32,015 nucleotides of DNA from a virus (Duplodnaviria; Heunggongvirae; Uroviricota; Caudoviricetes): IMG/VR virus record IMGVR_UViG_2706794662_000017; one strand, 5' to 3'. Positions 2,424 to 23,808 of this stretch are shown here, one piece after another. A model generated the notes under the pieces. That model made no database searches. It saw nothing but the letters and a program-made list of their open reading frames with translations, and was not told where the DNA came from. Within the stretch, counting starts at the first letter, position 1, and each line of letters begins with the position of its first letter. Position numbers and translations under genes: made by a program.

Positions 2424-2486
2424 ATAATTAACCAGAGTTTTTAACGCACTTAATTGTGCGGGGCTTCTTTTTGCCTGGAGAAAGTC

Positions 2487-2711: not shown

Positions 2712-3010
2712 TGTCCTGTTCTCATTCAGTTGTATTACTGAATAACGCCTTAAAAATCGCCGTTATGAAAAATGGCGACTTGTCTCTTATTCAACTTTGT
2801 CTTGATAAAGAAAAACGCGACATCACTGAATCTGTTATCGCGATTTATCAGAATGAATTAAACCTCCTGTCTGATGTGGTCAATTTACTTGTTAAACGCG
2901 CTGTATTCCACAAGCAAATTTCCTCAGTGGATGAACTGACAAAATTAACGACAGAACTTGCCAGTTATTGCGCTGATGTATCCAGGAAACTTAACGATAA
3001 AAGGAGCTGA
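2708..3010 (+). CDS. Small hypothetical early protein (P2 orf81 position)
   Basis: 100-aa ORF, start overlapping the upstream stop (ATGA-type coupling). Confidence 0.45.
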
Positions 3011-3012
3011 TA

Positions 3013-3237
3013 ATGCCGGACAACATAGATTTTATTCAGGAACAACAGGCTGAATTACTGGAGCGCCAGATTAACGCGGCAAGGGTAAAACATTGCGGTG
3101 CTTCTGCGCTGGTTTGCGAAGAGTGTGACGCGCCAATTCCTGCTGCCCGTCGTGCGGCTTATCCGTCAGCCACGCGTTGTGTTTCCTGTCAGTCAGTCTT
3201 TGAAGCAAAAAACAAACATTACCGGAGAACGGCATGA
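3013..3237 (+). CDS. TraR/DksA-family C4 zinc-finger protein (P2 orf82 position)
   Basis: 74 aa containing CxxC...(17 aa)...CxxC (CEECDAPIPAARRAAYPSATRCVSCQ); AAAAGGAG RBS upstream. Confidence 0.6.
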   Translation: MPDNIDFIQEQQAELLERQINAARVKHCGASALVCEECDAPIPAARRAAYPSATRCVSCQSVFEAKNKHYRRTA

Positions 3238-3478
3238 GTATTCGTATTGAAATTGGCGAACGTTATGTCGTTACCAGTGACAGCTTCCAGTTTATTCTCC
3301 ACGAGAAAAAGAGAGCGGAAAGCGGTAAAAACGCCGGTCAGGAATGGCTAGCGGTGGTTGGTTATTACCCGAAATTAAGCCAGCTCGTTTCCGGCCTGAT
3401 GCATCACGATATTCTGACCGGAAGCGCAAAGTCTTTTGCTGATTTAAACGCGCAGGTTGAGCAACTCAGCAAGCGTTG
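3234..3478 (+). CDS. Hypothetical early protein (P2 orf83 position), 3' end lost in masked region
   Basis: ORF starts ATG 3234 and runs into the N-run at 3479; the true end is unknown. Confidence 0.4.
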
Positions 3479-3755
3479 NNNNNNNNNNNNNNNNNNNNNN
3501 NNNNNNNNNNNNNNNNNNNNNNNNNNNNNNNNNNNNNNNNNNNNNNNNNNNNNNNNNNNNNNNNNNNNNNNNNNNNNNNNNNNNNNNNNNNNNNNNNNNN
3601 NNNNNNNNNNNNNNNNNNNNNNNNNNNNNNNNNNNNNNNNNNNNNNNNNNNNNNNNNNNNNNNNNNNNNNNNNNNNNNNNNNNNNNNNNNNNNNNNNNNN
3701 NNNNNNNNNNNNNNNNNNNNNNNNNNNNNNNNNNNNNNNNNNNNNNNNNNNNNNN
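3479..3755. other. Run of N (277 nt, masked or unsequenced)
   Basis: Literal N characters; hides the orf83 end and the start of A. Confidence 1.
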
Positions 3756-5830: not shown

Positions 5831-5916
5831 CTCAATAAATATGAGTTTATAAGTTAGGCCTCGAGATTTTGTAGAAAGGGATGTATACTGAGTATCGTAT
5901 AGATTTGGAGTGAGTG

Positions 5917-6939
5917 ATGACTGTAAAGGTGATAGACCTTTTTTGTGGTGCTGGCGGATTAACTCATGGTTTGCAGCTTGCGGGGCTTGATGTCGTTGCA
6001 GGCATTGACCTTGAGGGGGAATGTAGGTTTCCCTATGAAAGAAACAATAAATCTAAGTTTATTGAGCAAGATATCGCTAAAGTAACAAAAGAGGAACTGC
6101 TGAGGCTTTATGGTGATGCGTCTGTAAAAGTATTGGCAGGATGCGCACCTTGCCAACCTTTTTCAAAATATACTCAAGGAAAAGATAAGGCTGATGATAA
6201 AAAATGGCCTCTTCTTTATGAGTTCGAACGTTTAATTCGCGAAGTATCTCCAGAAATCGTAACAATGGAGAACGTTCCTGATGTAACTAAACATAAAGTT
6301 TATAATGATTTTTATAATTCATTGTTAAAGTTGGGCTATTATGTTTGGGCGTCTAAGATTGATTGTGTCGAATATGGAATCCCACAAAACCGTTCCCGTC
6401 ATGTATTGTTGGCCTCAAAATTGGGGGCGATTGAGTTAGTAAAACGTGACGATGTTATTTTGAAAACAGTTAGAGATGCAATAGGAAATCTTCCTCCATT
6501 AGAAGATGGCCAAACAGATCCAAATGATATATTACATAGAGCCAGTAAATTAAATCCGATTAATAAAAAAAGAATTATACACTCTGTTCCTGGTGGTACA
6601 TGGAAGGACTGGCCGAAAGAGTTGGTTGCCGCTTGTCATATGAAATCCAGCGGTAAAGGGTATGCTAGTGTATATGGGCGCATGTCTTGGGATAAGCCAA
6701 GTCCAACAATTACAACTCTTTGTTATGGTTTCGGGAATGGGCGTTTTGGACATCCAGAACAGCATAGAGCGATTTCTCTTAGAGAGGCTGCTTTATTGCA
6801 AACTTTCCCGATGGATTATATTTTTGTAGAAGACAAAAACAAGTTTGTTATAAGAAGTATTGGGAAAATGATAGGTAATGCTGTTCCTGTGGAACTAGGA
6901 AAAGCAATTGGGCAATCAATCAAGAACCATTTAGAATGA
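5917..6939 (+). CDS. DNA (cytosine-5)-methyltransferase, complete, no adjacent restriction endonuclease recognised
   Basis: Motif I DLFCGAGG, motif IV PCQPFS (catalytic Cys), motif VI ENV, motif VIII QNRSR, motif X GNAVPV; ATG 5917 with GGAG 6 nt upstream; AT-rich relative to the phage backbone. Confidence 0.85.
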   Translation: MTVKVIDLFCGAGGLTHGLQLAGLDVVAGIDLEGECRFPYERNNKSKFIEQDIAKVTKEELLRLYGDASVKVLAGCAPCQPFSKYTQGKDKADDKKWPLLYEFERLIREVSPEIVTMENVPDVTKHKVYNDFYNSLLKLGYYVWASKIDCVEYGIPQNRSRHVLLASKLGAIELVKRDDVILKTVRDAIGNLPPLEDGQTDPNDILHRASKLNPINKKRIIHSVPGGTWKDWPKELVAACHMKSSGKGYASVYGRMSWDKPSPTITTLCYGFGNGRFGHPEQHRAISLREAALLQTFPMDYIFVEDKNKFVIRSIGKMIGNAVPVELGKAIGQSIKNHLE

Positions 6940-6945
6940 TAAAAT

Positions 6946-6962
6946 GGCCTGCTTTACAGGCC
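6946..6962. terminator. Hairpin GGCCTG-CTTTA-CAGGCC between convergent genes (possible bidirectional terminator)
   Basis: Perfect 6-bp stem with 5-nt loop, flanked by A/T-rich sequence, lying between the methyltransferase stop (6939) and the minus-strand gene stop (6969). Confidence 0.35.
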
Positions 6963-6968
6963 TTATAA

Positions 6969-7649
6969 CTATTGTTCTAAATATTCATTATTATTTATAT
7001 AGTGCTCTATATTATTCACGATAGCATCAAGATAGGCGATTACTTCTAATGAAATATTCTCTAAGTCCTGATATGAAACATTTTTTCCAATCTCAGCAAA
7101 TGATACATTGCCATGAGATAAATCATTACGATGTTGTTTAACAGTGGCTAATTTTTCACCATGTTTAGTGTGAGTGTAATCGGAATGTGTAGAAAAACCA
7201 TATATTTTCGATTTTTCTTTGATTTCCTCTCTATCAATATTTCCTGAGAATATTTTCTTTTTGTTGAACGTGCCATAAGATATACCGCAAGATATACCTT
7301 TGGTAAGGTGATTAACTAAACTTTCAACATTTACAGATTCATTTTTTAATCTTTTTAATATTTCTGACCTGAGATTTTTCCTGAGTTTGTCAAATTCTAC
7401 GTTTCTATCATAAATAGTCTCATGAATAAGGCAGATAGCTTCTCTCATTGTTGATTCAATGAGGTTATATAACAGTATATATACTGCTCCCTTTAGAGTT
7501 TTTCGTGATTGAGCAGTAATGGAGAACTTATGTTCTTTATCATCAGCTGATATCAGTTCTGCACCGGCATACTCAATAAATTTCAAAAGATCCAAATAGG
7601 CCAAGATCTCTCCTGACCTTTCGTCAAAATCCTCACGAAAACGATCCAT
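6969..7649 (-). CDS. Hypothetical 226-aa protein with C-terminal Rx4H motif (putative HEPN-like nuclease); second gene of a two-gene operon
   Basis: ATG 7647-7649 with AGAGGA RBS 5 nt upstream, located inside the 3' end of the upstream gene; R-N-D-L-S-H at residues 174-179 (nt 7113-7130); function is inferred from the motif only. Confidence 0.55.
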   Translation of the reverse strand: MDRFREDFDERSGEILAYLDLLKFIEYAGAELISADDKEHKFSITAQSRKTLKGAVYILLYNLIESTMREAICLIHETIYDRNVEFDKLRKNLRSEILKRLKNESVNVESLVNHLTKGISCGISYGTFNKKKIFSGNIDREEIKEKSKIYGFSTHSDYTHTKHGEKLATVKQHRNDLSHGNVSFAEIGKNVSYQDLENISLEVIAYLDAIVNNIEHYINNNEYLEQ

Positions 7650-7650
7650 G

Positions 7651-8793
7651 TTAATCCTCTAATAATTTATCCCGAACATATTCAATTCGTTCAATTACCT
7701 TCACGCGACTATTAGCTCCGTCGGAAGTGGTCAATCGTTTGAATTCTTCTGAGCTTAGCCAATCTAAGTTCTTGGGAACAAGGTCAGGGACTTCACGTAA
7801 TGCAAGTGCTGCGCCAACAGCGAGAGATTCGAATCTAACTCGAGGTGTAGATTTTGCAGTAATAGTTTTCTTGAATCCTGCTGGGAAATAGTTTTCAACA
7901 AAAGATAGAACATTAGCAAACTCTTGTTTCATTGAGTTTTGTTTAGTTTCGTCTATATCTCGATTTTCTGACATATAGTCATTTAGAAAATCCCGTACGG
8001 AATGATCAAAGTTCTTGTACTTATCTACGTAGGCAAAGAATCTTAATGTAAATTCTAACCGTTCATCTCGTTTTTCTTTAGTCTGAGATAAAGGTGCTAA
8101 TTCTTTAAATTTAGGTATTGTTGAGCATGGCTTAATAACCTGTGTATATAAATTTGTTGAACCAAGTTCTGATCCTTTACGGACTTCCATATCTTTCAAT
8201 ATATCGCTGCCAGAGTTAATACGCTCAAAAAGATCTCTACGGGTTTCTTCATTGCATTTAGAACTCAATTCTATAACGCGGACAGGAATTCTCATGAAAC
8301 GACGTTGACGTGATAATGGTAAATCTTGGAATTTGAAACCATTAAGGACGTCTAAAGATTTCAGGTCTTGTAAAACTAATTCATTTTGGATAAAAGCGTG
8401 TATAGTCCTAACTCGTTGTGAGCCATCAACAATCTCAATTCGCCCATCTAAATCGGGATCTTCGGAGAGAACATCTGCTATAAATATATATGGTATAGGA
8501 AAACCCAAAATCAAAGACTCTATCAATTTTGATTGTCTTTTTTCACTCCAAACAAAATCCCTTTGATAATCAGGAACAAAGAGTTCGTTAGTATCATCCT
8601 CTAATCCGTTATGATACTTATTAACTAATAACTCAACGGTAAATTCTTTGGTCTCAAAATCCACATCCTTTTGCTCAGCACGAATTTGCTCTTCAGCGTT
8701 TTGCTTTATCACCTCTAGCTGAGCAAGCAACTCTGCTCTTTTCTTGGCATTATCTTCATTTTCTAGTTGAGATTTTAAATCAATAATGTCCAT
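7651..8793 (-). CDS. DUF262 (ParB/Srx-like, GmrSD N-terminal-type) domain protein; first gene of a two-gene operon
   Basis: Signature motifs FVPDYQRDFVW, GFPIPYIF and IVDGSQRVRTI (DGQQR variant); preferred start ATG 8791-8793 with AGGGA RBS 7 nt upstream (the ORF track extends to a TTG at 8811); stop is 1 nt from the downstream gene start; no DUF1524/HNH-like C-terminal domain recognised. Confidence 0.75.
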   Translation of the reverse strand: MDIIDLKSQLENEDNAKKRAELLAQLEVIKQNAEEQIRAEQKDVDFETKEFTVELLVNKYHNGLEDDTNELFVPDYQRDFVWSEKRQSKLIESLILGFPIPYIFIADVLSEDPDLDGRIEIVDGSQRVRTIHAFIQNELVLQDLKSLDVLNGFKFQDLPLSRQRRFMRIPVRVIELSSKCNEETRRDLFERINSGSDILKDMEVRKGSELGSTNLYTQVIKPCSTIPKFKELAPLSQTKEKRDERLEFTLRFFAYVDKYKNFDHSVRDFLNDYMSENRDIDETKQNSMKQEFANVLSFVENYFPAGFKKTITAKSTPRVRFESLAVGAALALREVPDLVPKNLDWLSSEEFKRLTTSDGANSRVKVIERIEYVRDKLLED

Positions 8794-8978
8794 GTCTAGT
8801 TCCCTTAACAAGTGTTAAAAATTGAAGCGGATAGCATACCGCATAGATCATGAAAAATGCCATCATGTGCATGGATTTGCATGCGTCAGAAGTCGCTTTT
8901 ATTGTTAGTTATCACTAGCGCTGGCGTGCTCTTGGAGTGTTCATGCAACTGCATTAAAACCGCCCCATGAAGCGGGCG

Positions 8979-8997
8979 GGCGAGGCGGGGAAAGCAC
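8979..8997. other. cos: cos site, 19-nt cohesive-end sequence GGCGAGGCGGGGAAAGCAC
   Basis: Exact match to the P2 cohesive-end 19-mer as I recall it, located just upstream of Q where P2 cos lies. Confidence 0.6.
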
Positions 8998-9135
8998 TGC
9001 GCGCTGGCGGTGGTGCTGATTTTATTTTCCAGCGTCTCAGCGCGTCGTGACGGCGCTTAGTCTGCCCGTTGGGCGTTGGTGTGTCTGCGGGATTTTTTGT
9101 GCGGTGATGAGCGTGTGAGGGCGTGATGGCGGGGT

Positions 9136-9160
9136 GTAAAAAAGCCGCCCGCAGGCGGCG
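9136..9160 (-). terminator. Rho-independent terminator downstream of Q (minus strand)
   Basis: GC stem GCCGCC / GGCGGC (9144-9159) followed on the minus strand by a U-tract (plus-strand AAAAAA 9138-9143), directly 3' of the Q stop. Confidence 0.5.
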
Positions 9161-9164
9161 ATGT

Positions 9165-10199
9165 TCAGCCGTTGTCAGTGTCCAGTGAGTAGTTTTTAAA
9201 GCGGATGACCTCCTGACCGAGCCAGCCGTTTATCTCGCGGATCCTGTCCTGTAACGGGATAAGCTCATTGCGGACAAAGACCTTTGCCACTTTCTCAATA
9301 TCACCCAGCGACCCGACGTTCTCCGGCTTGCCCCCCATCAACTGAAAGGGGATGCGGTGCGCGTCCAGCAGGTCAGCGGCGCTGGCTTTTTTGATATTAA
9401 AAAAATCGTCCTTCGTTGCCACTTCACTGAGCGGGATAATTTTAATGCCGTCGGCTTTCCCCTGTGGGGCATAGAGAAACAGATTTTTAAAGTTATTGCG
9501 GCCTTTCGACTTAACCATGTTTTCGCGAAGCATTTCGATATCGTTGCGATCCTGCACGGCATCGGTGACGTACATGATGTATCCGGCATGTGCGCCGTTT
9601 TCGTAATACTTGCGGCGGAACAGCGTGGCCGACTCATTCAGCCATGCAGAGTTAAGGGCGCTGAGATATTCCGGCAGGCCGTACAGCTCCTGATTAATAT
9701 CAGGCTCCAGCAGGTGAAACACGGAGCCGGGCGCGAAGGCTGTCGGCTCGTTGAAGGACGGCACCCACCAGTAAACATCCTCCTCCACGCCACGACGGGT
9801 ATATTTGGCCGGTGAGGTTTCCAGTCTGATGACCTTACCGGTGGTGCTGTAACGCTTTTCCAGAAACGCATTACCGAACACCAGAAAATCCAGCACAAAA
9901 CGGCTGAAATCCTGCTGGGAAAGCCACGGGTGCGGGATAAACGTTGAAGCCAGAATATTACGTTTGACGTAAATCGGTGAGCTGTGATGCACGGCAGCAC
10001 GCAGGCTTTTTGCCAGACCGGTAAAGCTGACCGGCGGCTCATACCATCTGCCGTTACTGATGCACTCGACGTAATCCAGAATGTCACGGCGGTCGAGTAC
10101 CGGCACCGGCTCACCAAAGGTGAATGCTTCCATTTTCGGGGCGCTGGCGGTGATTGTTTTTGCCGCAGGTCGCGGTGTTTTCCCTTTTTTCTTGCTCAT
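9165..10199 (-). CDS. Q: Portal protein (P2 gpQ)
   Basis: 344 aa, near-identical to P2 gpQ as I recall it (MSKKKGKTP...SLDTDNG). Confidence 0.95.
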   Translation of the reverse strand: MSKKKGKTPRPAAKTITASAPKMEAFTFGEPVPVLDRRDILDYVECISNGRWYEPPVSFTGLAKSLRAAVHHSSPIYVKRNILASTFIPHPWLSQQDFSRFVLDFLVFGNAFLEKRYSTTGKVIRLETSPAKYTRRGVEEDVYWWVPSFNEPTAFAPGSVFHLLEPDINQELYGLPEYLSALNSAWLNESATLFRRKYYENGAHAGYIMYVTDAVQDRNDIEMLRENMVKSKGRNNFKNLFLYAPQGKADGIKIIPLSEVATKDDFFNIKKASAADLLDAHRIPFQLMGGKPENVGSLGDIEKVAKVFVRNELIPLQDRIREINGWLGQEVIRFKNYSLDTDNG

Positions 10200-11971
10200 C
10201 AGTAAAACTCCAGAATGGTGGATGTCAGCGGAGTGCTGATACCGGCGGTGAGTGGCTCATTTAACAGGGCGTGCATGGTTGCCCAGGCGAGGTCGGCGTG
10301 GCTGGCTTCCTCGCTGCGGCTGGCCTCATAGGTGGCACTGCGTCCGCTGCTGGTCATGGTCTTGCGGATAGCCATGAACGAGCTGGTGATGTCGGTGGCG
10401 CTGACGTCATATTCCAGACAGCCACGGCGGATGACGTCTTTGGCCTTGAGCACCATTGCGGTTTTCATTTCCGGCGTGTAGCGGATATCGCGCGCGGCGG
10501 GATAGAACGAGCGCACGAGCTGGAACACGCCGACACCGAGGCCGGTGGCATCAATACCGATGTATTCGACGTTGTATTTTTCGGTGAGTTTGCGGATGGA
10601 CTCCGCCTGGGTGGCAAAGTCCATGCCTTTCCACTGGTGACGCTCAAGTATTCTGAATTTGCCACCGGCCACCACCGGCGGTGCCAGCACCACGCATCCG
10701 GCGCTGTCGCCACGGTGTGACGGGTCGTAACCAATCCATACCGGGCGGGAGCCGAACGGATTTGCGGCAAACGGCGCGTAGTCTTCCCATTCTTCCAGCG
10801 TGTCGACCATGCAGCGTTGCAGCTCCTCGAACGGGAACACCGATACCTTGTCGTCAACAAATTCACACATGAACAGGTTTTTAAAATCGTCGGCGCTGTT
10901 TTCGCGTTTGAGCTGCTCAATGTCGAACAATGTGCAGCCGCCTTTCAGGGCGTCCTCAATGGTGACAATCTGCCGCCACTGGCCGTCCGCACAGAGAAGA
11001 CCACCGGCAAGGGCGTTATGACTGACGTCGATTTCCACACGTTCGGCGGCGCTGGCGCGTCCCCGGTTGAACAGTTCACCCGACCAGAACGGGTAGGCGT
11101 CGTGCGCCAGCGTGGACGGGGTGGAGAAATAGGTCGAGCGCAGGTGACTCTGTGAGGCCATACCTGATGCCACCTTACGCAGTACCTGAAAATTCGGGAT
11201 CCAGAAAATCTCGTCGACGTACAGGTCGCCGTTATGGCTCTGTGCGGTGTTGGAGTTGGTGCCGAGAAAAATCAGTTTTGCGCCGTTATTGCCCAGGACA
11301 ATCGGGTCACCGGTCAGGTCAACGTCAACCAGACGAGCAAAGGCGATGATGTATTCACGGAACACATACGCCTGCGTTTTACTGGCCGACAGAAAAATCT
11401 GGTTATGGCCGGTTTTCAGGGCGCGCAGCAGCGCCTCGCGGGAAAAATAAAACGTCGCGCCAATCTGGCGGGATTTCAGGATATCGCGGATGCGGTGCTC
11501 AAGCCCGGCACGATACCAGTGCAACTGATAGTCGAAAGACTGCTCAAAGAAAATCTGCTCCAGCTTTTCGATGGCCTCGTCACTGAAAAAATTCTTTTTC
11601 GGTTTGCGACGCCCGCCTTTGTTGCGGTTAGCGATGTTCGGATTAAGGTCTGCCTCGTTGCCGGTCTGGCTGTAGCGGTTTACCCGTGCCAGTCGTTCAA
11701 TCTGGCGTCCGAGCAGGTCAATTTCCTTGAAGTCACCGCCGGTTTTCTGCGGTTTGATGATGAGCTGGGTCAGCCGCGCTTCCAGACTCATTTCGACACG
11801 GCTGATGGGGGCAACACTGTCCCAGCCGTCGCGCTGTTTCCAGCTCTGCACCGTCGGGCGTTTCATCTGCAACATGGCGGCAATCTGCGGCACGGAAAAC
11901 CCCTGCCAGTACAGCAGCGCCGCCTGACGACGCGGGTCGTGTAAAAGAGTGGTGTCTGTGGTGATGGTCAT
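10199..11971 (-). CDS. P: Terminase large subunit/ATPase (P2 gpP)
   Basis: P2 gpP-like from MTITTDTTLLHD (ATG 11969-11971), 590 aa; the ORF track starts 10 codons earlier. Confidence 0.95.
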   Translation of the reverse strand: MTITTDTTLLHDPRRQAALLYWQGFSVPQIAAMLQMKRPTVQSWKQRDGWDSVAPISRVEMSLEARLTQLIIKPQKTGGDFKEIDLLGRQIERLARVNRYSQTGNEADLNPNIANRNKGGRRKPKKNFFSDEAIEKLEQIFFEQSFDYQLHWYRAGLEHRIRDILKSRQIGATFYFSREALLRALKTGHNQIFLSASKTQAYVFREYIIAFARLVDVDLTGDPIVLGNNGAKLIFLGTNSNTAQSHNGDLYVDEIFWIPNFQVLRKVASGMASQSHLRSTYFSTPSTLAHDAYPFWSGELFNRGRASAAERVEIDVSHNALAGGLLCADGQWRQIVTIEDALKGGCTLFDIEQLKRENSADDFKNLFMCEFVDDKVSVFPFEELQRCMVDTLEEWEDYAPFAANPFGSRPVWIGYDPSHRGDSAGCVVLAPPVVAGGKFRILERHQWKGMDFATQAESIRKLTEKYNVEYIGIDATGLGVGVFQLVRSFYPAARDIRYTPEMKTAMVLKAKDVIRRGCLEYDVSATDITSSFMAIRKTMTSSGRSATYEASRSEEASHADLAWATMHALLNEPLTAGISTPLTSTILEFY

Positions 11972-12144
11972 GAATACCTCGCCGTGATGAATACACGGCA
12001 AGGCTACTGAGTCGCGCCCCGCGATTCGCTAATGTGCTGTTGTGTCAGTGATAAACCATCCGGGACTGATGGCGGAGGATGCGCATCGTCGGGAAACTGA
12101 TGCCGACATGTGACTCCTCTAATCACTATTCAGGACTCCTGACA

Positions 12145-12999
12145 ATGGCAAAAAAAGTCTCAAAATTCTTTCGTATCGGCGTTGAGGGTGACACCTGTGA
12201 CGGGCGTGTCATCAGTGCGCAGGATATTCAGGAAATGGCCGAAACCTTTGACCCGCGTGTCTATGGTTGCCGCATTAACCTGGAACATCTGCGCGGCATC
12301 CTGCCTGACGGTATTTTTAAGCGTTATGGCGATGTGGCCGAACTGAAGGCCGAAAAGATTGACGATGATTCGGCGCTGAAAGGCAAATGGGCGCTGTTTG
12401 CGAAAATCACCCCGACCGATGACCTTATCGCGATGAACAAGGCCGCGCAGAAGGTCTACACCTCAATGGAAATTCAGCCGAACTTTGCCAACACCGGCAA
12501 ATGTTATCTGGTGGGTCTGGCCGTCACCGATGACCCGGCAAGCCTCGGCACGGAATACCTGGAATTCTGCCGCACGGCAAAACACAACCCCCTGAACCGC
12601 TTCAAATTAAGCCCTGAAAACCTGATTTCAGTGGCAACGCCTGTTGAGCTGGAATTTGAAGACCTGCCTGAAACCGTGTTCACCGCCCTGACCGAAAAGG
12701 TGAAATCCATTTTTGGCCGCAAACAGGCCAGCGATGATGCCCGTCTGAATGACGTGCATGAAGCGGTGACCGCTGTTGCTGAACATGTGCAGGAAAAACT
12801 GAGCGCCACTGAGCAGCGCCTCGCTGAGATGGAAACCGCCTTTTCTGCACTTAAGCAGGAGGTGACTGACAGGGCGGATGAAACCAGCCAGGCATTCACC
12901 CGCCTGAAAAACAGTCTCGACCACACCGAAAGTCTGACCCAGCAGCGCCGCAGCAAGGCCACCGGTGGTGGCGGTGACGCCCTGATGACGAACTGCTGA
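12145..12999 (+). CDS. O: Capsid scaffolding protein (P2 gpO)
   Basis: P2 gpO-like from MAKKVSKFFRIG (ATG 12145), 284 aa; the ORF track extends further upstream. Confidence 0.9.
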   Translation: MAKKVSKFFRIGVEGDTCDGRVISAQDIQEMAETFDPRVYGCRINLEHLRGILPDGIFKRYGDVAELKAEKIDDDSALKGKWALFAKITPTDDLIAMNKAAQKVYTSMEIQPNFANTGKCYLVGLAVTDDPASLGTEYLEFCRTAKHNPLNRFKLSPENLISVATPVELEFEDLPETVFTALTEKVKSIFGRKQASDDARLNDVHEAVTAVAEHVQEKLSATEQRLAEMETAFSALKQEVTDRADETSQAFTRLKNSLDHTESLTQQRRSKATGGGGDALMTNC

Positions 13000-13057
13000 C
13001 CGGCGTCAGTCAGTCCGGGAAAACCTTCACGATTAACCCTTAATTTCAGGAAAAACT

Positions 13058-14130
13058 ATGCGCCAGGAAACCCGCTTTAAATTTAATGCTTACCTGTCCC
13101 GTGTTGCCGAGCTGAACGGCATCGACGCCGGTGATGTGTCGAAAAAATTCACCGTTGAACCGTCGGTCACCCAGACCCTGATGAACACCATGCAGGAGTC
13201 CTCTGACTTTCTGACCCGCATCAACATTGTGCCGGTCAGTGAAATGAAAGGGGAAAAAATTGGCATCGGTGTCACCGGCTCCATCGCCAGCACCACCGAC
13301 ACCGCCGGTGGCACCGAGCGTCAGCCGAAGGACTTCTCGAAGCTGGCGTCAAACAAGTACGAATGCGACCAGGTTAACTTCGATTTTTATATCCGCTACA
13401 AAACGCTTGACCTGTGGGCGCGTTATCAGGATTTCCAGCTCCGTATCCGTAACGCCATTATCAAACGCCAGTCCCTTGATTTCATCATGGCCGGTTTTAA
13501 CGGCGTGAAGCGTGCCGAAACCTCTGACCGCAACAGTAATCCGATGCTGCAGGATGTGGCGGTCGGCTGGCTGCAGAAATACCGAATGAAGCCCCGGCGC
13601 GCGTGATGAGCAAGGTCACTGACGAGGAAGGCCGCACCACCTCTGAGGTTATCCGCGTGGGTAAGGGCGGTGATTATGTAAGCCTCGATGCACTGGTGAT
13701 GGATGCGACCAACAACCTGATTGAACCTTGGTATCAGGAAGACCCTGACCTTGTGGTGATTGTGGGGCGTCAGCTACTGGCGGACAAGTATTTCCCTATC
13801 GTCAACAAGGAGCAGGATAACAGCGAGATGCTGGCCGCTGACGTCATCATCAGCCAGAAACGCATCGGTAACCTGCCGGCGGTACGCGTCCCGTACTTCC
13901 CGGCGGATGCGATGCTCATCACGAAGCTGGAAAACCTGTCCATCTACTACATGGATGACAGCCATCGCCGCGTGATTGTGGAAAACCCGAAACTCGACCG
14001 CGTGGAGAACTACGAGTCAATGAACATTGATTACGTGGTGGAGGACTACGCCGCCGGTTGTCTGGTGGAAAAAATTAAGGTCGGTGATTTCTCCACACCG
14101 GCTAAAGCGACCGCAGAGCCGGGAGCGTAA
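13058..14130 (+). pseudogene. N: Major capsid protein gene (P2 gpN) split by a 1-nt frameshift near 13584-13585
   Basis: Two ORFs (13058..13606, frame 2; 13603..14130, frame 1) together give the 357-aa gpN; at the junction this sequence reads QKYRMKPRRA-stop, while the other frame reads NEAPARVMSKVT, matching the intact protein. Confidence 0.7.
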
Positions 14131-14133
14131 CCG

Positions 14134-14877
14134 ATGACGAGTCCCGCACAGCGCCACATGATGCGGGTCTCGGCAGCGATGACCGCGCAGCGGGAAGCCG
14201 CCCCGCTGCGACATGCAACTGTCTATGAGCAGATGCTGGTCAAGCTGGCCGCAGACCAGCGCACACTGAAAGCGATTTATTCAAAAGAGCTGAAGGCCGC
14301 GAAAAAACGCGAACTGCTGCCGTTCTGGTTGCCGTGGGTGAACGGCGTGCTGGAGCAGGGCAAAGGTGCACAGGATGACATTCTGATGACGGTCATGCTG
14401 TGGCGTCTGGATACCGGCGATATTGCCGGTGCGCTGGAGATTGCCCGTTATGCCCTGAAGTACGGTCTGACCATGCCGGGTAAACACCGCCGCACCCCGC
14501 CGTACATGTTCACCGAGGAGGTGGCGCTTGCGGCCATGCGCGCTCACGCTGCCGGTGAGTCTGTGGATCCCCGCCTGCTGACGGACACCCTCGAACTGAC
14601 CGCCACGGCTGACATGCCTGATGAAGTGCGCGCAAAGCTGCACAAAATCACCGGTCTGTTTCTGCGTGACGCTGGTGATGCCGCAGGTGCGCTGGTACAC
14701 CTGCAACGTGCGACACAGCTCGACTGTCAGGCAGGCGTCAAAAAAGAGATTGAACGACTGGAGCGGGAGCTGAAACCGAAGCCGGAGCCGCAGCCCAAAG
14801 CGGCCACCCGCACTCCGCGTAAGACCCGGAGCGTGACACCGGCAAAACGTGGACGCCCGAAAAAGAAAGCCAGTTAA
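14134..14877 (+). CDS. M: Terminase small subunit/endonuclease (P2 gpM)
   Basis: 247 aa, P2 gpM-like; lysine/proline-rich C-terminal tail. Confidence 0.9.
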   Translation: MTSPAQRHMMRVSAAMTAQREAAPLRHATVYEQMLVKLAADQRTLKAIYSKELKAAKKRELLPFWLPWVNGVLEQGKGAQDDILMTVMLWRLDTGDIAGALEIARYALKYGLTMPGKHRRTPPYMFTEEVALAAMRAHAAGESVDPRLLTDTLELTATADMPDEVRAKLHKITGLFLRDAGDAAGALVHLQRATQLDCQAGVKKEIERLERELKPKPEPQPKAATRTPRKTRSVTPAKRGRPKKKAS

Positions 14878-14976
14878 CAACCGAATGCGCCCCGCGCCAG
14901 GGCGGCACGCCGGTCAGTGACGGTGAATCACCTGACACTGCACCGGCGTCCACCGCCCGACTTTTCAGAGGTAGTC

Positions 14977-15486
14977 ATGATGACGCTGATTATTCCGCGA
15001 AAGGAGGCTCCCGTGTCCGGTGAGGGTACGGTGGTTATCCCGCAACCGGCAGGCGACGAGCCGGTGATTAAAAACACGTTCTTTTTTCCCGATATTGACC
15101 CGAAGCGCGTCCGGGAACGTATGCGCCTTGAGCAGACCGTCGCCCCCGCCCGTCTGCGTGAGGCCATCAAGTCAGGCATGGCGGAGACGAATGCGGAGCT
15201 GTACGAGTACCGCGAACAGAAAATTGCTGCCGGTTTTTCGCGTCTGGCTGACGTCCCGGCGGACGACATCGACGGTGAAAGCATCAAAGTTTTTTACTAC
15301 GAGCGCGCTGTGTGTGCGATGGCGACCGCGTCGCTTTATGAGCGTTACCGCGGCGTGGATGCCAGTGCCAAGGGCGACAAGAAGGCCGACAGCATTGACA
15401 GCACCATTGATGAGCTGTGGCGGGATATGCGCTGGGCGGTGGCGCGTATCCAGGACAAGCCGCGCTGCATCGTGAGTCAAATCTGA
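14977..15486 (+). CDS. L: Head completion protein (P2 gpL)
   Basis: P2 gpL-like from MMTLIIPRKEAP (ATG 14977), 169 aa. Confidence 0.9.
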   Translation: MMTLIIPRKEAPVSGEGTVVIPQPAGDEPVIKNTFFFPDIDPKRVRERMRLEQTVAPARLREAIKSGMAETNAELYEYREQKIAAGFSRLADVPADDIDGESIKVFYYERAVCAMATASLYERYRGVDASAKGDKKADSIDSTIDELWRDMRWAVARIQDKPRCIVSQI

Positions 15487-15689
15487 TGAAGACCTTTGCG
15501 CTACAGGGCGACACGCTCGACGCCATTTGTGTTCGGTATTACGGGCGCACTGAGGGCGTGGTCGAGGCCGTGCTCGCCGCAAATCCGGGACTGGCTGAAC
15601 TGGGGGCGGTGCTGCCACACGGCACCGCCGTCGAACTGCCCGACGTTCAGACCGCGCCCGTGGCTGAAACTGTCAATCTGTGGGAGTAA
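15486..15689 (+). CDS. X: Tail protein X (P2 gpX, LysM-like)
   Basis: 67 aa from MKTFALQGDTLDAICVRYYG, start overlapping the L stop. Confidence 0.85.
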   Translation: MKTFALQGDTLDAICVRYYGRTEGVVEAVLAANPGLAELGAVLPHGTAVELPDVQTAPVAETVNLWE

Positions 15690-15692
15690 CGC

Positions 15693-15974
15693 ATGACAGC
15701 AGAAGAAAAAAGCGTCCTGTCGCTTTTCATGATTGGGGTGCTGATTGTTGTCGGCAAGGTGCTTGCCGGTGGTGAACCCATCACTCCGCGTCTGTTTATC
15801 GGGCGCATGTTGCTCGGTGGTTTTGTCTCGATGGTTGCCGGTGTTGTTCTGGTGCAGTTTCCTGACCTGTCACTGCCTGCGGTGTGCGGCATCGGCTCCA
15901 TGCTGGGTATCGCCGGTTATCAGGTGATTGAGATTGCCATTCAGCGCCGCTTTAAGGGCAGGGGGAAACCGTAA
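15693..15974 (+). CDS. Y: Holin (P2 gpY)
   Basis: 93 aa with hydrophobic transmembrane stretches; position upstream of the endolysin. Confidence 0.85.
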   Translation: MTAEEKSVLSLFMIGVLIVVGKVLAGGEPITPRLFIGRMLLGGFVSMVAGVVLVQFPDLSLPAVCGIGSMLGIAGYQVIEIAIQRRFKGRGKP

Positions 15975-16471
15975 TGCCGGTAATTAGCACACATCAGAAT
16001 ATCGCCGCCTTTCTCGACATGCTGGCCGTGTCCGAAGGGACGGCGAATCATCCGCTGACGAAAAACCGGGGCTATGACGTGATAGTCACCGGACTGGACG
16101 GGAAGCCGGAAATCTTCACCGACTACAGTGACCACCCGTTCGCACATGGCCGACCGGCGAAGGTGTTTAACCGTCGCGGTGAAAAATCCACGGCCTCCGG
16201 TCGCTATCAGCAGCTTTACCTGTTCTGGCCGCACTACCGCAAACAGCTTGCCCTGCCGGATTTCAGTCCGTTGTCACAGGACAGGCTCGCCATTCAGTTG
16301 ATCCGCGAACGCGGTGCACTGGATGACATCCGGGCGGGACGCATTGAGCGCGCCATTTCACGCTGTCGCAATATCTGGGCGTCCCTGCCGGGTGCCGGTT
16401 ACGGTCAGCGTGAGCATTCACTGGAAAAACTGGTCACCGTCTGGCGCACCGCTGGCGGCGTACCGGCTTAA
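15974..16471 (+). CDS. K: Endolysin (P2 gpK)
   Basis: 165 aa, P2 gpK size and position. Confidence 0.9.
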   Translation: MPVISTHQNIAAFLDMLAVSEGTANHPLTKNRGYDVIVTGLDGKPEIFTDYSDHPFAHGRPAKVFNRRGEKSTASGRYQQLYLFWPHYRKQLALPDFSPLSQDRLAIQLIRERGALDDIRAGRIERAISRCRNIWASLPGAGYGQREHSLEKLVTVWRTAGGVPA

Positions 16472-16485
16472 ACGGAGTAAACACC

Positions 16486-16911
16486 ATGAAGAAATTATCC
16501 CTTTCACTGATGCTGAACGTGTCGCTGGCGCTGATGCTGGCACTGTCCCTGATTTACCCGCAGAGCGTGGCCGTCAGTTTTGTCGCTGCATGGGCGATTC
16601 TGGCGACGGTTATCTGTGTGATTGCCGGTGGTGTCGGCGTGTATGCCGCGGAGTATGTGCTGGAACGCTACGGGCGGGAGCTGCCGCCGGAATCGCTGGC
16701 CGTGAAGATTGTCACGTCGCTGTTTTTGCAGCCGGTGCCGTGGCGCAGACGGGCAGCGGCTCTGATGGTGATGGTGGCGACGTTTATCTCGCTGGTCGCT
16801 GCCGGGTGGATTTTTACCGCACTGATTTATCTCGTGGCATCGCTGTTTTTCCGGCTGATACGTACGGCCTGCCGTCAGCGTCTTGAGGGGCGGGAACCAT
16901 GTCAAAACTGA
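16486..16911 (+). CDS. lysA: Lysis timing protein LysA (membrane protein)
   Basis: 141 aa, strongly hydrophobic, P2 lysA size and position. Confidence 0.75.
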   Translation: MKKLSLSLMLNVSLALMLALSLIYPQSVAVSFVAAWAILATVICVIAGGVGVYAAEYVLERYGRELPPESLAVKIVTSLFLQPVPWRRRAAALMVMVATFISLVAAGWIFTALIYLVASLFFRLIRTACRQRLEGREPCQN

Positions 16912-17324
16912 TGATTGTGCTGGTTGTGTTGTTATCGCTGGCGGTGGCCGGTCTGTTTCTGGTGAAACACAAAAATGCCAGCCTGCGCGCCTTGCTGGAC
17001 AGGGCGAACAACGTCGCCAGTGAACAGCAGACGACCATCACCATGCTGAAAAACCAGCTTCATGTTGCCCTCACCAGGGCAGACAAAAACGAGCTGGCGC
17101 AGGTGGCACTGCGTCAGGAACTGGAGAACGCCGCGAAGCGTGAAGCTCAGCGCGAGAAAACCATCACGAGGTTACTTAATGAAAACGAAGATTTTCGCCG
17201 CTGGTACGGTGCTGACCTGCCTGATGCTGTGCGCCGGTTGCACCAGCGCACAGCCTGCGCAGACGCCAGTGATTGTCCACAACGCCTGCCCGAAAGTGAG
17301 CCTTTGCCCGATGCCGGGCAGTGA
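16899..17324 (+). CDS. lysB: Spanin inner-membrane subunit LysB (Rz-like)
   Basis: 141 aa, N-terminal transmembrane segment then coiled-coil-like region; P2 lysB size and position. Confidence 0.8.
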   Translation: MSKLMIVLVVLLSLAVAGLFLVKHKNASLRALLDRANNVASEQQTTITMLKNQLHVALTRADKNELAQVALRQELENAAKREAQREKTITRLLNENEDFRRWYGADLPDAVRRLHQRTACADASDCPQRLPESEPLPDAGQ

Positions 17325-17469
17325 CCCGCAGACGAACGGCGATTTAAGTGCTGATATCCGGCAGCTTGAGAACGCGCTGGCACGCTGTGCCAGCCAGGTA
17401 AAAATGATTAAACACTGTCAGGACGAAAACGATGCTCAAACCCGACAGCCTGCGCAGGGCGCTGACTGA
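17179..17469 (+). CDS. lysC: Spanin outer-membrane lipoprotein LysC (Rz1-like), embedded out of frame in lysB
   Basis: ATG 17179 inside lysB in another frame; signal peptide with lipobox (LMLCAGC); 96 aa as for P2 lysC. Confidence 0.65.
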   Translation: MKTKIFAAGTVLTCLMLCAGCTSAQPAQTPVIVHNACPKVSLCPMPGSDPQTNGDLSADIRQLENALARCASQVKMIKHCQDENDAQTRQPAQGAD

Positions 17470-17899
17470 TGCCGTCACGGTGCTGAAAACAAGCCCCGAG
17501 ATGCTGCGGATATTCGTGGATAACGGGAGTATTGCCTCCACACTGGCGACGTCGCTGTCATTCGAAAAGCGTTACACGCTCAACGTGATTGTGACCGACT
17601 TTACCGGTGATTTTGACCTGCTCATCGTGCCGGTGCTGGCGTGGCTGCGGGAAAATCAGCCCGACATCATGACCACCGACGAAGGCCAGAAAAAGGGCTT
17701 CACGTTTTATGCAGACATCAACAATGACAGCAGCTTTGATATCAGCATCAGCCTGATGCTGACCGAGCGCACGCTGGTCAGTGAGGTGGACGGCGCGCTG
17801 CATGTGAAGAATATCCCGGAACCTCCGCCGCCGGAGCCGGTCACCCGCCCGATGGAGCTTTATATCAATGGCGAACTGGTGAGTAAGTGGGATGAATGA
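17432..17899 (+). CDS. R: Tail completion protein R (P2 gpR)
   Basis: 155 aa, P2 gpR size and position. Confidence 0.9.
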   Translation: MLKPDSLRRALTDAVTVLKTSPEMLRIFVDNGSIASTLATSLSFEKRYTLNVIVTDFTGDFDLLIVPVLAWLRENQPDIMTTDEGQKKGFTFYADINNDSSFDISISLMLTERTLVSEVDGALHVKNIPEPPPPEPVTRPMELYINGELVSKWDE

Positions 17900-18422
17900 G
17901 TTTAAGCGTTTTGAAGACAGGCTGACCGGACTTATTGAGTCGCTGTCACCGTCAGGGCGTCGGCGACTGAGCGCCGAACTGGCGAAACGTCTGCGTCAGA
18001 GTCAGCAGCGTCGGGTGATGGCACAGAAAGCCCCGGACGGCACACCCTACGCACCACGCCAGCAGCAGAGCGCCAGAAAAAAGACCGGTCGCGTTAAGCG
18101 AAAAATGTTTGCGAAACTTATCACCAGTCGTTTTTTGCATATCCNNNNNNNNNNNNNNNNNNNNNNNNNNNNNNNNNNNNNNNNNNNNNNNNNNNNNNNN
18201 NNNNNNNNNNNNNNNNNNNNNNNNNNNNNNNNNNNNNNNNNNNNNNNNNNNNNNNNNNNNNNNNNNNNNNNNNNNNNNNNNNNNNNNNNNNNNNNNNNNN
18301 NNNNNNNNNNNNNNNNNNNNNNNNNNNNNNNNNNNNNNNNNNNNNNNNNNNNNNNNNNNNNNNNNNNNNNNNNNNNNNNNNNNNNNNNNNNNNNNNACCC
18401 GGCGGCATCCTTCCCGTTATGA
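17892..18422 (+). CDS. S: Tail completion protein S (P2 gpS); 3' part inside masked region
   Basis: N-terminal 84 aa readable and gpS-like; reading frame continues through the N-run to a stop overlapping the V start (ATGA); the true end could lie inside the N-run. Confidence 0.7.
   Translation: MNEFKRFEDRLTGLIESLSPSGRRRLSAELAKRLRQSQQRRVMAQKAPDGTPYAPRQQQSARKKTGRVKRKMFAKLITSRFLHIXXXXXXXXXXXXXXXXXXXXXXXXXXXXXXXXXXXXXXXXXXXXXXXXXXXXXXXXXXXXXXXXXXXXXXXXXXXXXXXXXXXXXPAASFPL
18145..18396. other. Run of N (252 nt, masked or unsequenced)
   Basis: Literal N characters inside S and upstream of V. Confidence 1.
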
Positions 18423-20311: not shown

Positions 20312-20834
20312 TTCGCGACTGCTGCCGACCGGCTCATCACCGCTTGAAGTTGCCGCCGCAAAAGCCTGTGCGGAAATTGAAAAAACGCCGGTCAGGATTC
20401 GTGAACTGTGGAACCCGGATACCTGTCCGGCAAATCTGCTGCCGTGGCTGGCGTGGGCGTTTTCGGTCGACAGGTGGGATGAAAAGTGGCCGGAAGCGAC
20501 AAAACGCGCCGTTATCCGCGATGCCTATTTCATCCACTGTCATAAAGGCACTATCGGCGCAATCCGGCGTGTGGTGGAGCCGCTCGGCTATCTCATCAAC
20601 GTGACGGAGTGGTGGGAAAACAGTGACCCGCCCGGCACCTTCCGGCTTGATATTGGTGTACTGGAAAGCGGCATCACAGAGGCAATGTATCAGGAAATGG
20701 AACGGCTTATTGCTGATGCCAAACCTGCAAGCCGTCATCTTATTGGCCTGAACATTACCCGGGACATTCCCGGCTACCTGTTCGCCGGTGGTGTGGCTTA
20801 CGACGGCGATGTAATTACGGTTTACCCCGGATAA
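20304..20834 (+). CDS. I: Baseplate protein (P2 gpI)
   Basis: 176 aa, P2 gpI size and position. Confidence 0.9.
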   Translation: MSDSRLLPTGSSPLEVAAAKACAEIEKTPVRIRELWNPDTCPANLLPWLAWAFSVDRWDEKWPEATKRAVIRDAYFIHCHKGTIGAIRRVVEPLGYLINVTEWWENSDPPGTFRLDIGVLESGITEAMYQEMERLIADAKPASRHLIGLNITRDIPGYLFAGGVAYDGDVITVYPG

Positions 20835-20844
20835 GTGAGGAATA

Positions 20845-23163
20845 ATGAGCACAAAATTCAGAACCGTTATCACCACTGCCGGTGCAGCAAAGCTGGCAGC
20901 GGCAACCGCACCGGGAGGGCGGAAGGTCAACATTACCACGATGGCCGTCGGGGATGGCGGTGGTAAATTGCCTGTCCCGGATGCCGGACAGACCGGGCTT
21001 ATCCACGAAGTCTGGCGACATACGCTGAACAAAATCAGCCAGGACAAACGAAACAGTAATTATATTATCGCAGAGCTGGTTATTCCGCCGGAGGTGGGCG
21101 GTTTCTGGATGCGTGAGCTTGGCCTGTACGATGATGCGGGAACGTTAATTGCCGTGGCGAACATGGCCGAAAGTTATAAGCCAGCTCTTGCCGAAGGCTC
21201 AGGGCGTTCGCAGACCTGTCGCATGGTCATCATCGTCAGCAGTGTGGCCTCGGTGGAGCTGACCATTGACACCACAACGGTGATGGCGACACAGGATTAC
21301 GTTGATGACAAAATTGCAGAGCACGAACAGTCACGACGTCACCCGGACGCCTCGCTGACCGCAAAAGGTTTTACTCAGTTAAGCAGTGCGACCAACAGCA
21401 CGTCTGAAACACTGGCCGCAACGCCGAAAGCGGTAAAGGCCGCCTATGACCTTGCTAACGGGAAATATACCGCACAGGACGCTACCACAGCTCGAAAAGG
21501 TCTTGTCCAGCTCAGTAGTGCCACCAACAGCACGTCTGAAACGCTTGCGGCAACGCCAAAGGCGGTTAAGACAGCGTATGACCTTGCTAACGGGAAATAC
21601 ACTGCACAGGACGCCACTACAGCGCGAAAAGGTCTTGTCCAGCTCAGTAGCGCCACCAACAGCGATTCTGAAACGCTTGCGGCAACACCAAAGGCGGTTA
21701 AGACAGCGTATGACCTTGCTAACGGGAAATACACTGCACAGGATGCCACCACAGCGCGAAAAGGTCTTGTCCAGCTAAGTAGTGCCATCAACAGCGATTC
21801 TGAAACGCTGGCCGCAACGCCAAAAGCAGTGAAGTCTGCCTATGACAATGCTGAAAAACGTCTTCAGAAAGATCAGAACGGTGCGGATATTCCGGGAAAG
21901 GATACCTTCACGAAAAATATCGGTGCCTGTCGTGCTTATAGCGGCGCTTTGAGCACTGAAGCCGGAAACTGGACAACCGCTCAGTTTATTGAATGGCTGG
22001 ATTCCCGTGGTGCATTTAATCATCCGTACTGGATGTGCAAAGGCTCCTGGTCATATGCAAATAACAAAATCATTACGGATACCGGATGTGGTGATATCCA
22101 CCTGGCTGGTTGTGTCGTCGAGGTCATGGGAACTAAATCTGCAATCACTATCCGAGTGACCACGCCAACAACATCAAGCGGTGGCGGTACAACCAGCGCG
22201 CAATTCACTTACATAAATCATGGGGACGGCTACTCCCCCGGCTGGCGTCGTGACTGGAATCGTCAGGGCGACTCAATGACCGGAACGATTAATCAGGATG
22301 GCGGAAGCCAGAATGCCTATATGTCTACGGCCTTATGTTCAGGCACCAGAGGCGGCAAAAAATATCTCAGAAAGTTTCGTGGTGGAGAAGGAGATACTAT
22401 CTGGCATGAAACAGTTCAGGGCGGGGTAATTCGCTGGGCGACAGGAAACAATGACGCTCAGGAAGAATTATCACTCAGCTCCGCTTATGGTCTCCGTTCA
22501 AGAGGTGAAATTACATCACTCAGTGCTAATGGTCTGCGCATTGCTTATGGCAATTATGGATTCTTTATCAGGAATGATGGCGGCAGCACATATTTAATGC
22601 TGACGGCCTCTGGCGATAAATTTGGGACATGGAACGGCTTAAGACCGCTGACTATCAATAACGCCAATGGCGGAGTGTCAATGGGGCATGGCCTGAGTGT
22701 TACAGGTGATATTGTCTCAAGTACCAAAGTACGTGCCGGTAGCGGGAAAAAGTTCACGGTCAGCAGCAGCAATACATCCACGAAGGAAGCCGCATTCAAT
22801 TTGTGGGGAAACTCAAGTCGTCCTGTGGTGGCTGAATTAGGTGATGATGCAGGCTGGCATTTTTACAGTCAGAGAAATACAGATAACAGCATCACTTTTG
22901 CTGTTAACGGGCAGGTATCACCATCTAACTATGGCAACTTTGATTCACGCTATGTCCGGGATATCCGGCTTGGTGGTGCTGCCACATACAAACCTGCGAA
23001 CAATGGTATGACATGGACACATCAGGCACCGTCCGGGTGTGTATATTCCGGCATTATTGTTCAGGATACCGGCTCAAACTCTGCCGATAACATTGGTGGC
23101 GTATATTACAGACCGGTGCAGAAATACATTAACGGGACTTGGTATAACGTGGCACAGGTATAA
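20845..23163 (+). CDS. H: Tail fibre protein (P2 gpH-like) with internal tandem repeats
   Basis: 772 aa; conserved gpH-like N-terminus (MSTKFRTVITTAGAAKLAAATAPGG); repeat block in the middle and a C-terminal region I do not recognise from P2. Confidence 0.9.
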   Translation: MSTKFRTVITTAGAAKLAAATAPGGRKVNITTMAVGDGGGKLPVPDAGQTGLIHEVWRHTLNKISQDKRNSNYIIAELVIPPEVGGFWMRELGLYDDAGTLIAVANMAESYKPALAEGSGRSQTCRMVIIVSSVASVELTIDTTTVMATQDYVDDKIAEHEQSRRHPDASLTAKGFTQLSSATNSTSETLAATPKAVKAAYDLANGKYTAQDATTARKGLVQLSSATNSTSETLAATPKAVKTAYDLANGKYTAQDATTARKGLVQLSSATNSDSETLAATPKAVKTAYDLANGKYTAQDATTARKGLVQLSSAINSDSETLAATPKAVKSAYDNAEKRLQKDQNGADIPGKDTFTKNIGACRAYSGALSTEAGNWTTAQFIEWLDSRGAFNHPYWMCKGSWSYANNKIITDTGCGDIHLAGCVVEVMGTKSAITIRVTTPTTSSGGGTTSAQFTYINHGDGYSPGWRRDWNRQGDSMTGTINQDGGSQNAYMSTALCSGTRGGKKYLRKFRGGEGDTIWHETVQGGVIRWATGNNDAQEELSLSSAYGLRSRGEITSLSANGLRIAYGNYGFFIRNDGGSTYLMLTASGDKFGTWNGLRPLTINNANGGVSMGHGLSVTGDIVSSTKVRAGSGKKFTVSSSNTSTKEAAFNLWGNSSRPVVAELGDDAGWHFYSQRNTDNSITFAVNGQVSPSNYGNFDSRYVRDIRLGGAATYKPANNGMTWTHQAPSGCVYSGIIVQDTGSNSADNIGGVYYRPVQKYINGTWYNVAQV
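21364..21852 (+). repeat. Tandem in-frame repeat inside H, ~3.7 copies of a 132-nt (44-aa) unit
   Basis: Unit starts at 21364, 21496, 21628 and 21760; encodes K/RGxxQLSSATNSxSETLAATPKAVKxAYDLANGKYTAQDATTA (phage tail-fibre repeat type). Confidence 0.85.
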
Positions 23164-23166
23164 TTT

Positions 23167-23694
23167 ATGCAGCATTTGATAAATATAACGGCAGGTAATC
23201 CAAAAACGGTTGAACAATATCAATTGACAAAGGACTTTGATGTTGTCTGGTTTTTTTCAGAAGATGGTAAGAACTGGTACGAAGAACAAAAGTATTTTGC
23301 TGATGACACGATAAAAATAGCGTACGACAAAGATAATATTATCCGCTATGTGGAAAAGGATGTGACAGCTATCAGACCGGATGGATTAAGTGTTGTTGAA
23401 GTGCCGGATATTACTGCTAACCGACGGGCGGACATTTCAGGGAACTGGATGTTTAAGGACTGTACAGTGATTAAACGAATTTATACGGCAGAGGAATTGC
23501 AGCAGCAGGCAGAAAATCGGAAAGCCAGACTTCTTGCAGATGCTGAATCCGTGATTTTGCCGCTGGAGCGCGCTGTCAGGCTGAATATGGCAACAGATGA
23601 GGAGCGCAGTCGACTGGAGGCATGGGAACGCTACAGTGTTCTGGTCAGTCGTGTGGATCCTGCAAATCCTGAATGGCCGGAAATGCCGCAATAA
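23167..23694 (+). CDS. G: Tail fibre assembly chaperone (P2 gpG)
   Basis: 175 aa; N- and C-termini (MQHL..., ...[13 protein letters not shown]) match P2 gpG as I recall it. Confidence 0.85.
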
Positions 23695-23776
23695 GTTGTA
23701 TGAGCTCTGGTGTGAGCTTACATATCTATGGCACAGAGTAAAGCCTAATCTGAGAGTCCGCTCTGTGCCAGAAGTA

Positions 23777-23805
23777 GACGCACAAGGTGGGCGTGTCTTT
23801 TTCTT
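23777..23805 (+). terminator. Putative rho-independent terminator after the V-G late operon
   Basis: GC-rich imperfect hairpin GACGCAC...GGCGTGTC followed by TTTTTCTT on the plus strand, between the G stop and the convergent cargo gene. Confidence 0.35.
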
Positions 23806-23808
23806 AAG

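Follow-up and report, generated by a model that had tools for sequence, protein, structure and literature searches.

The P2-like prophage described here (the window, that is, the whole stretch of 32,015 nucleotides that was analysed) carries a major capsid gene N that has lost a single C and is a pseudogene of the P2 gpN family. Alignments to intact relatives, the distribution of the deletion among public Shigella sonnei assemblies and a near-isogenic prophage with an intact N were analysed together. We consider the frameshift very probably a genuine inherited mutation, supporting the reading of the prophage as capsid-defective, and we suggest with high confidence that, with the loss of N, a prophage in a young host clone has taken an early and ordinary step towards decay.

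The prophage and its capsid gene

The positions below are those of the window.

1-32015, + strand: whole prophage, P2-like (Peduovirus-type), from int to ogr, between cpxP and fieF in S. sonnei
9165-10199, - strand: Q, portal, of the same length as in intact relatives
10199-11971, - strand: P, large terminase, of the same length as in intact relatives
12145-12999, + strand: O, scaffold/protease, of the same length as in intact relatives
13058-14130, + strand: gene N, P2-family major capsid, homologue of the P2 gene, between O and M
13058-13606, + strand: 5' fragment of N, 182 aa, made of 176 native codons and 6 out-of-frame codons (MKPRRA)
13584-13585, + strand: site of the 1-nt deletion, from alignments to intact relatives
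13604-13606, + strand: TGA stop of the 5' fragment, from the ORF list
13606-14130, + strand: 3' fragment of N, 174 aa, whose ATG at 13606 is the native Met184, with the native stop
14134-14877, + strand: M, small terminase subunit, intact, directly 3' of N

A first-pass annotation of this DNA had described N as encoded in two frames, 13058..13606 and 13603..14130, and the ORF list gives exactly these. The C-terminus of the 5' fragment is ...GWLQKYRMKPRRA followed by the stop, so that the product ends QKYRMKPRRA; the 3' ORF can be started at 13603 (GTG, 175 aa) or at 13606 (ATG, 174 aa) and opens with (M)MSKVTDEEG. The annotation had further placed the loss of a single nucleotide at about 13584/13585. 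Alignment with three intact relatives puts the absent base precisely there and identifies it as a C (junction TACCG[C]AATGAA); codon 176 was turned from CGC to CGA by the deletion, and the frame is shifted after it. The intact junction, with the base C included, is TACCGCAATGAA. The junction 31-mers are GCTGCAGAAATACCGAATGAAGCCCCGGCG for the deleted form and GCTGCAGAAATACCGCAATGAAGCCCCGGCG for the intact form.

With the C restored, N encodes 357 aa and reads QKYR-NEAPARV-MSKVT, the protein that the annotation had expected, and 66 public contigs, under the names E. coli or "MULTISPECIES Enterobacteriaceae", encode exactly this repaired protein. N measures 1073 nt in the window and 1074 nt in all of the listed relatives, which comprise 97 records from phages and 1,540 from complete E. 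coli genomes. The C is present in all of the records that matched the junction query, 97/97 from phages and 1,475/1,475 from complete E. coli genomes. The latter set consists of genomes filed as E. coli only, with S. sonnei outside it, so that finding the deletion in 0 of 1,475 complete E. coli records was expected.

The PF05125 profile (Phage_cap_P2) matched the 5' fragment at profile positions 1-170 (E = 2.5e-73) and the 3' fragment at profile positions 178-327 (E = 6.7e-69); since the two matches occupy consecutive profile positions, they represent one gene cut in two. N agrees with the family in its sequence match and in the O-N-M synteny, and the single ORF of about 357 codons is missing. 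As in P2, the gene order is Q-P / O-N-M-L, and the 357-codon length of N is the same once the C is restored; in contrast to P2 gpN (PDB 7jw1), the ORF of the window is cut at codon 176 and no full fold is encoded.

The remainder of the prophage is well preserved. No coding indels relative to intact prophages were detected in the rest of the head module (9165..12999), the int, C, cox, B, A, Q, P, O, M, and L genes are all full length, and no tail or lysis gene is damaged. Over 20777-28604 and 28855-32015 the window matches S. sonnei 53G at 100% identity, and one base, at 3350, differs within 1-17649 outside the gap.

An exact look-up of the integrase matched almost no S. sonnei contigs, as other assemblies start the protein later (326 vs 336 aa). 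The tail-fibre gene H (20845-23163) contains a 132-nt tandem repeat at 21385-21846 (3.5 copies, 89% identity). In the S. sonnei draft CXAP01 the H protein has 728 vs 772 aa, which is 44 aa and exactly one repeat unit shorter, reflecting either real copy-number variation or short-read collapse. A cluster of small indels relative to the E. coli relatives lies at 8946-9068, a non-coding stretch between the cargo island and Q; in P2, the cos site lies in this stretch.

Ancestry of the deletion and the question of domestication

The exact 182-aa product of the deleted gene is indexed in 540 blocks of a public assembly collection, on contigs from less than 2 kb to more than 1 Mb. By exact look-up, this fragment was found on 396 contigs named S. 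sonnei and the 174-aa fragment on 377 contigs, originating from NCBI, UniRef, and Logan assemblies of public sequencing runs. The source names include "major capsid protein [Shigella sonnei]" and "capsid s domain protein [Shigella sonnei 53G]", and the longest contig with the exact fragments is the finished 53G chromosome (4,988,504 bp). The deletion is borne by hundreds of S. sonnei contigs and is therefore inherited in the lineage, not private to one isolate. Comparison with the same prophage in related strains, as the first-pass annotation had proposed, detected the deleted junction in three independent S. sonnei assemblies: CXAP01 (L005, an Illumina draft of the Holt-2012 accession series), 53G (L030, HE616528.1), and the complete genome CP179990.1 (L031). 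The intact junction was found in 8/8 other fetched prophage loci covering the site.

Searching with the cargo HEPN protein, we found two further copies of this prophage in which N is intact (357 aa), one in CP065611.1 (L026/L008) and one in the NCTC assembly UFZL01 (L027/L009). Both share with the window the insertion site, the cargo and the N bases, and differ from it in the presence of the C and thus in the intact N. In CP065611.1, the cargo and the cpxP|fieF insertion site are the same as in the window, and the N gene equals that of the window at all 1073 shared bases, plus the C. The UFZL01 gene calls contain many additional frameshifts, which are suspected to be assembly errors.

Over about 28.4 kb, the window and the CP065611.1 prophage are separated by 6 SNPs:

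3138: just upstream of A
9613: in Q, R/H
10286: in P, synonymous
10845: in P, V/A
21492: in H, synonymous
31187: in D, synonymous

The right host flank of CP065611.1, on the other hand, has diverged from 53G by about 0.4%, evenly spread, and its host therefore belongs to a lineage other than the S. sonnei clone. Such a pattern implies that a nearly identical, presumably viable phage would have recently entered different Escherichia/Shigella hosts. The 6 SNPs, set against the flank divergence of about 0.4%, indicate that the C was lost in the S. sonnei line once the phage had lysogenised it. Published Shigella clock rates underlie our timing estimate (PMC7979695); the 6 SNPs in 28 kb would correspond very roughly to 100 to 200 years of separation, a figure with a wide Poisson error. 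The intact-allele accession CSQ12471.1 belongs to the same series as S. sonnei entries, and some S. sonnei isolates may keep an intact N.

The same prophage carries additional insertion sequences (IS) in other S. sonnei strains. The CP179990.1 copy has an IS21 in the portal gene Q (4808-7524 of locus L031), and in the loci L029 and L032 IS630 copies (7681-8712 and 16763-17794 of these loci) replace int and cut the late region away. In 53G (L010), an IS4 lies immediately to the right of ogr (11503-12831 of that locus), and in the locus L011 IS4 and IS630 interrupt the Z/fun cargo gene (439-4476 of that locus). These IS21, IS630, and IS4 lesions look haphazard and fit decay in progress. The prophage resembles the cryptic prophages of Shigella and E. 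coli that point lesions and IS elements have inactivated: here too an essential morphogenetic gene was killed by a single, clonally fixed lesion, and IS21, IS630, and IS4 were added in the same prophage of other S. sonnei strains. In contrast to the cryptic prophages, the stage is very early, with one lesion and the other genes at full length.

A more degraded relative was observed in GCA_019840975.1 (L028), whose host is E. albertii by CpxP identity. Its int has been joined to a shortened A gene, and the early genes that lie between the two (C, cox, B and neighbours) have been lost, as have Q through T; the methylase-HEPN-DUF262 cargo and E'-U-D-ogr are kept.

The following cargo genes were detected in the tin/old and Z/fun hotspots of the window.

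5914-6939, + strand: C5 DNA methylase, tin/old hotspot (DrmMII/MTase_II, 1e-90)
6969-7649, - strand: HEPN_MAE_28990 protein, tin/old hotspot (Pfam/PADLOC)
7651-8811, - strand: DUF262/GmrSD_N protein, tin/old hotspot (PADLOC NsnA, 1.7e-54; PD-T4-2_A, 2.5e-35)
23809-25227, - strand: intact 472-aa ORF, Z/fun hotspot, between G and FI

All tin/old and Z/fun ORFs are full in the window, in agreement with the earlier claim that the cargo islands are intact. The tin/old island (5914-8811) occurs also in P2-like prophages of E. coli, E. fergusonii, and E. albertii, and its sequence makes it a candidate anti-phage island. The 472-aa Z/fun ORF, which has no Pfam/PADLOC match, is common to the E. coli prophages EC6622 and 3359.

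P2 hotspots are reservoirs of anti-phage systems (PMC9122126), and PD-T4-2 protects its native strain against T4 (PMC9519451); intact cargo akin to anti-phage systems in known hotspots therefore makes a benefit plausible. Together with the wholly intact tail and lysis genes, these observations favor an alternative in which the capsid defect represents domestication, with the prophage selected for its defence cargo or for headless tails (tailocin). The E. albertii remnant, having lost most early and structural genes and kept the cargo, is a single, suggestive case on the same side. We nevertheless consider domestication unlikely, as only 6 SNPs in about 28 kb lie between the S. sonnei copy and the copy with the intact N, and because so few substitutions separate the copies, drift suffices for an otherwise intact prophage. 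At Shigella clock rates (PMC7979695), a neutral prophage would probably have had too little time to decay further and should still be undamaged save for one or a few hits, and adaptive retention for the cargo, which does not appear to be needed to explain the pattern, is not supported. The cargo-retaining loci were located via a cargo protein search, which introduces an ascertainment bias, and in L011, one of the S. sonnei strains, IS elements disrupt the Z/fun cargo gene.

R-type tailocins derived from P2-like tails, for instance R-pyocins, resemble this prophage: the contractile-tail and lysis module is intact, and a functional capsid gene is absent. Established tailocins have, however, lost their head, replication, and integration genes, whereas these genes are still present here and only N is broken. 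P2-type prophages are classically not SOS-inducible, which would limit the release of tails and makes mitomycin C induction a weak test in this case. We know of no killing activity for this prophage. The more specific proposal that the capsid-less prophage is maintained as an immobilised anti-phage carrier (DUF262, HEPN, and C5 methylase), possibly also as a tailocin source, appears very doubtful. If domestication were true, the N frameshift would be its first, selected step, and P4-like satellites would be denied a capsid supply. Our preferred reading is that of ordinary prophage decay.

Sequencing error, recoding, and the capsid fold

The first-pass annotation had offered a sequencing error as an alternative to a real lesion. 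The window does come from a scaffolded draft: the three N-runs at 3479-3755, 18145-18396, and 28605-28854, which the annotation had taken as the mark of a draft assembly, are confirmed as scaffold gaps and are not masked features. They are wrongly sized (277, 252, and 250 N, where ungapped assemblies of this prophage have 243, 244, and 475 bases), and the genes under them (A, S, and the tape-measure gene T) are intact in the ungapped S. sonnei assemblies CXAP01 and 53G (L010). An error of sequencing or assembly in a low-quality draft, with a true N that is intact, is nevertheless hardly credible and the alternative is dropped: the identical deletion is present in the finished 53G chromosome, in the Holt-2012 Illumina isolate and in the complete CP179990.1 genome, and the exact truncated proteins occur on hundreds of contigs, Logan assemblies included.

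The immediate context of the deletion (CCG[C]AAT) is not a homopolymer, and no run of at least 5 identical bases was found in 13500-13620. In about 23 kb of alignment to intact prophages, no coding indel other than the N deletion is out of frame; the remaining small indels are those of the one intergenic stretch at 8946-9068 and a 12-nt insertion at 16530, which is in frame. The lesion spans several assemblies and technologies, without an error-prone context or stray indels nearby.

The exact junction pattern gave 0 matches each in genome_contigs and metagenome_contigs, which carries little weight: the collection includes one genome per species and, as Shigella falls within E. coli in GTDB, S. 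sonnei is missing from it. In IMG/VR, the sole match of the junction pattern was the source contig of the window itself, which is not independent. A 182-aa "E. coli" member of the cluster (P0006) was considered as a second frameshift and rejected, as it has the native sequence and is partial at a contig end.

The repaired gpN is about 98% identical to the P2 gpN of PDB 7jw1, aligned over 1-357. The structure of P2 gpN has the HK97 fold, with an N-arm, an E-loop, a P-domain with the spine helix alpha3, and an A-domain (PMC7552001). The sir loop (residues 183-224) begins where alpha4 ends in the P-domain and extends to the end of alpha5 in the A-domain; it includes M184, a functionally sensitive sir site (PMC7552001). 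The frameshift swaps residues 177-182 and then terminates the chain, cutting it at the end of the P-domain helix alpha4. The N-terminal product keeps the N-arm, E-loop, spine helix, and alpha4, but the entire A-domain and the C-terminal portion of the P-domain are missing from it. Because the break at 177-183 cuts through the HK97 fold, neither fragment contains all of it.

N is essential to head assembly of both P2 and P4, and the prophage thus carries an inactivating lesion in an essential gene, with gpN cut at the boundary of the P-domain and the A-domain. With the gpN fold broken, no procapsid and no infectious particles are expected. As predicted from sequence, the prophage should produce neither heads nor infectious particles, and should not be a capsid donor for P4-like satellites; the claim of the first-pass annotation that the prophage, if the lesion is real, cannot make capsids is supported to this extent by the cut in the gpN fold. 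If S. sonnei has another intact N of the P2 type elsewhere in its genome, the defect could be complemented in trans.

A working capsid might also be obtained from the two ORFs by decoding, either by a -1 frameshift within 13585-13603, by transcriptional slippage, or by reinitiation at TGATG followed by assembly of the fragments. The downstream frame of N is indeed -1 relative to the upstream frame, the stop of the first ORF overlaps the ATG of the second (TGATG, 13604-13608), the two fragments span all native residues except 7 (177-183), and P2 employs a programmed -1 frameshift elsewhere, in E/E+E'. The signals for recoding are, however, missing: no X_XXY_YYZ heptamer in register was detected in the open overlap 13540-13603 (recoding ALTERNATIVES), the overlap being bounded by the last upstream stop in the -1 frame (13537) and by 13604, and no Shine-Dalgarno motif was detected in the 20 nt before the ATG at 13606. 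Transcriptional slippage has no support, as there is no homopolymer of at least 5 bases. The two-frame arrangement is not conserved, N being a single ORF in every relative. The likeness to E/E+E' (two overlapping ORFs of a late operon, with the downstream one in the -1 frame) is superficial, as N has neither a slippery site nor conservation. TGATG at 13604-13608 has the geometry of translational coupling and is a chance product of the native ...R-V-M-S... sequence. In addition, the cut lies inside the P-domain, which in the HK97 fold is built from both fragments (PMC7552001), and the first residue of the C-terminal fragment, M184, is itself the functionally sensitive sir site (PMC7552001). Decoding of the two ORFs to a working capsid has therefore almost nothing to recommend it: programmed frameshifting, transcriptional slippage, and a Shine-Dalgarno-driven restart are dismissed for want of signals and conservation, and low-level restart with complementation by fragments is very unlikely.

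Proposed course and meaning of the lesion

We propose the following course for the decay of N. A P2-like phage would have lysogenised the S. sonnei line between cpxP and fieF, and one C in codon 176 of N would have been lost spontaneously after lysogeny. A large clone to which strain 53G belongs would then have become fixed for the deleted allele. Translation would stop after 176 native and 6 aberrant residues, and the downstream 174 codons would be translated at most inefficiently, by restart at TGATG. With no complete HK97 fold, there would be no procapsid, and consequently neither infectious particles nor donation of capsids to P4.

A literature search found no description of this S. sonnei P2-like prophage or of its N defect. 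Public annotation already shows the lesion in the form of two CDSs, and in at least one complete genome, CP179990.1, no gene product is recorded across the N region. Salmonella phage SEN34 is P2-like. Svab et al. 2017 described a 31-kb prophage, 75/02pp10, called "intact" by PHAST and closest to Salmonella phage SEN34. This prophage may be the same element; CXAP01 is absent from Table 1 of Svab et al. 2017. Calls of "intact" prophages by gene-content tools can overlook single-base lesions. For annotation, the two "capsid" CDSs in S. sonnei genomes are best handled as one pseudogene.

S. sonnei is a pathogen known for accumulating pseudogenes and IS elements. The general significance of the N lesion is small; by comparison with a near-isogenic intact copy, it records the initial lesion in the decay of a P2-like prophage in a young clone of such a pathogen. 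The 31-mer at the junction offers a simple clonal marker for placement on the S. sonnei phylogeny. For the biology of the host, our results predict that this prophage would not serve as a helper for P4-like satellites in S. sonnei.
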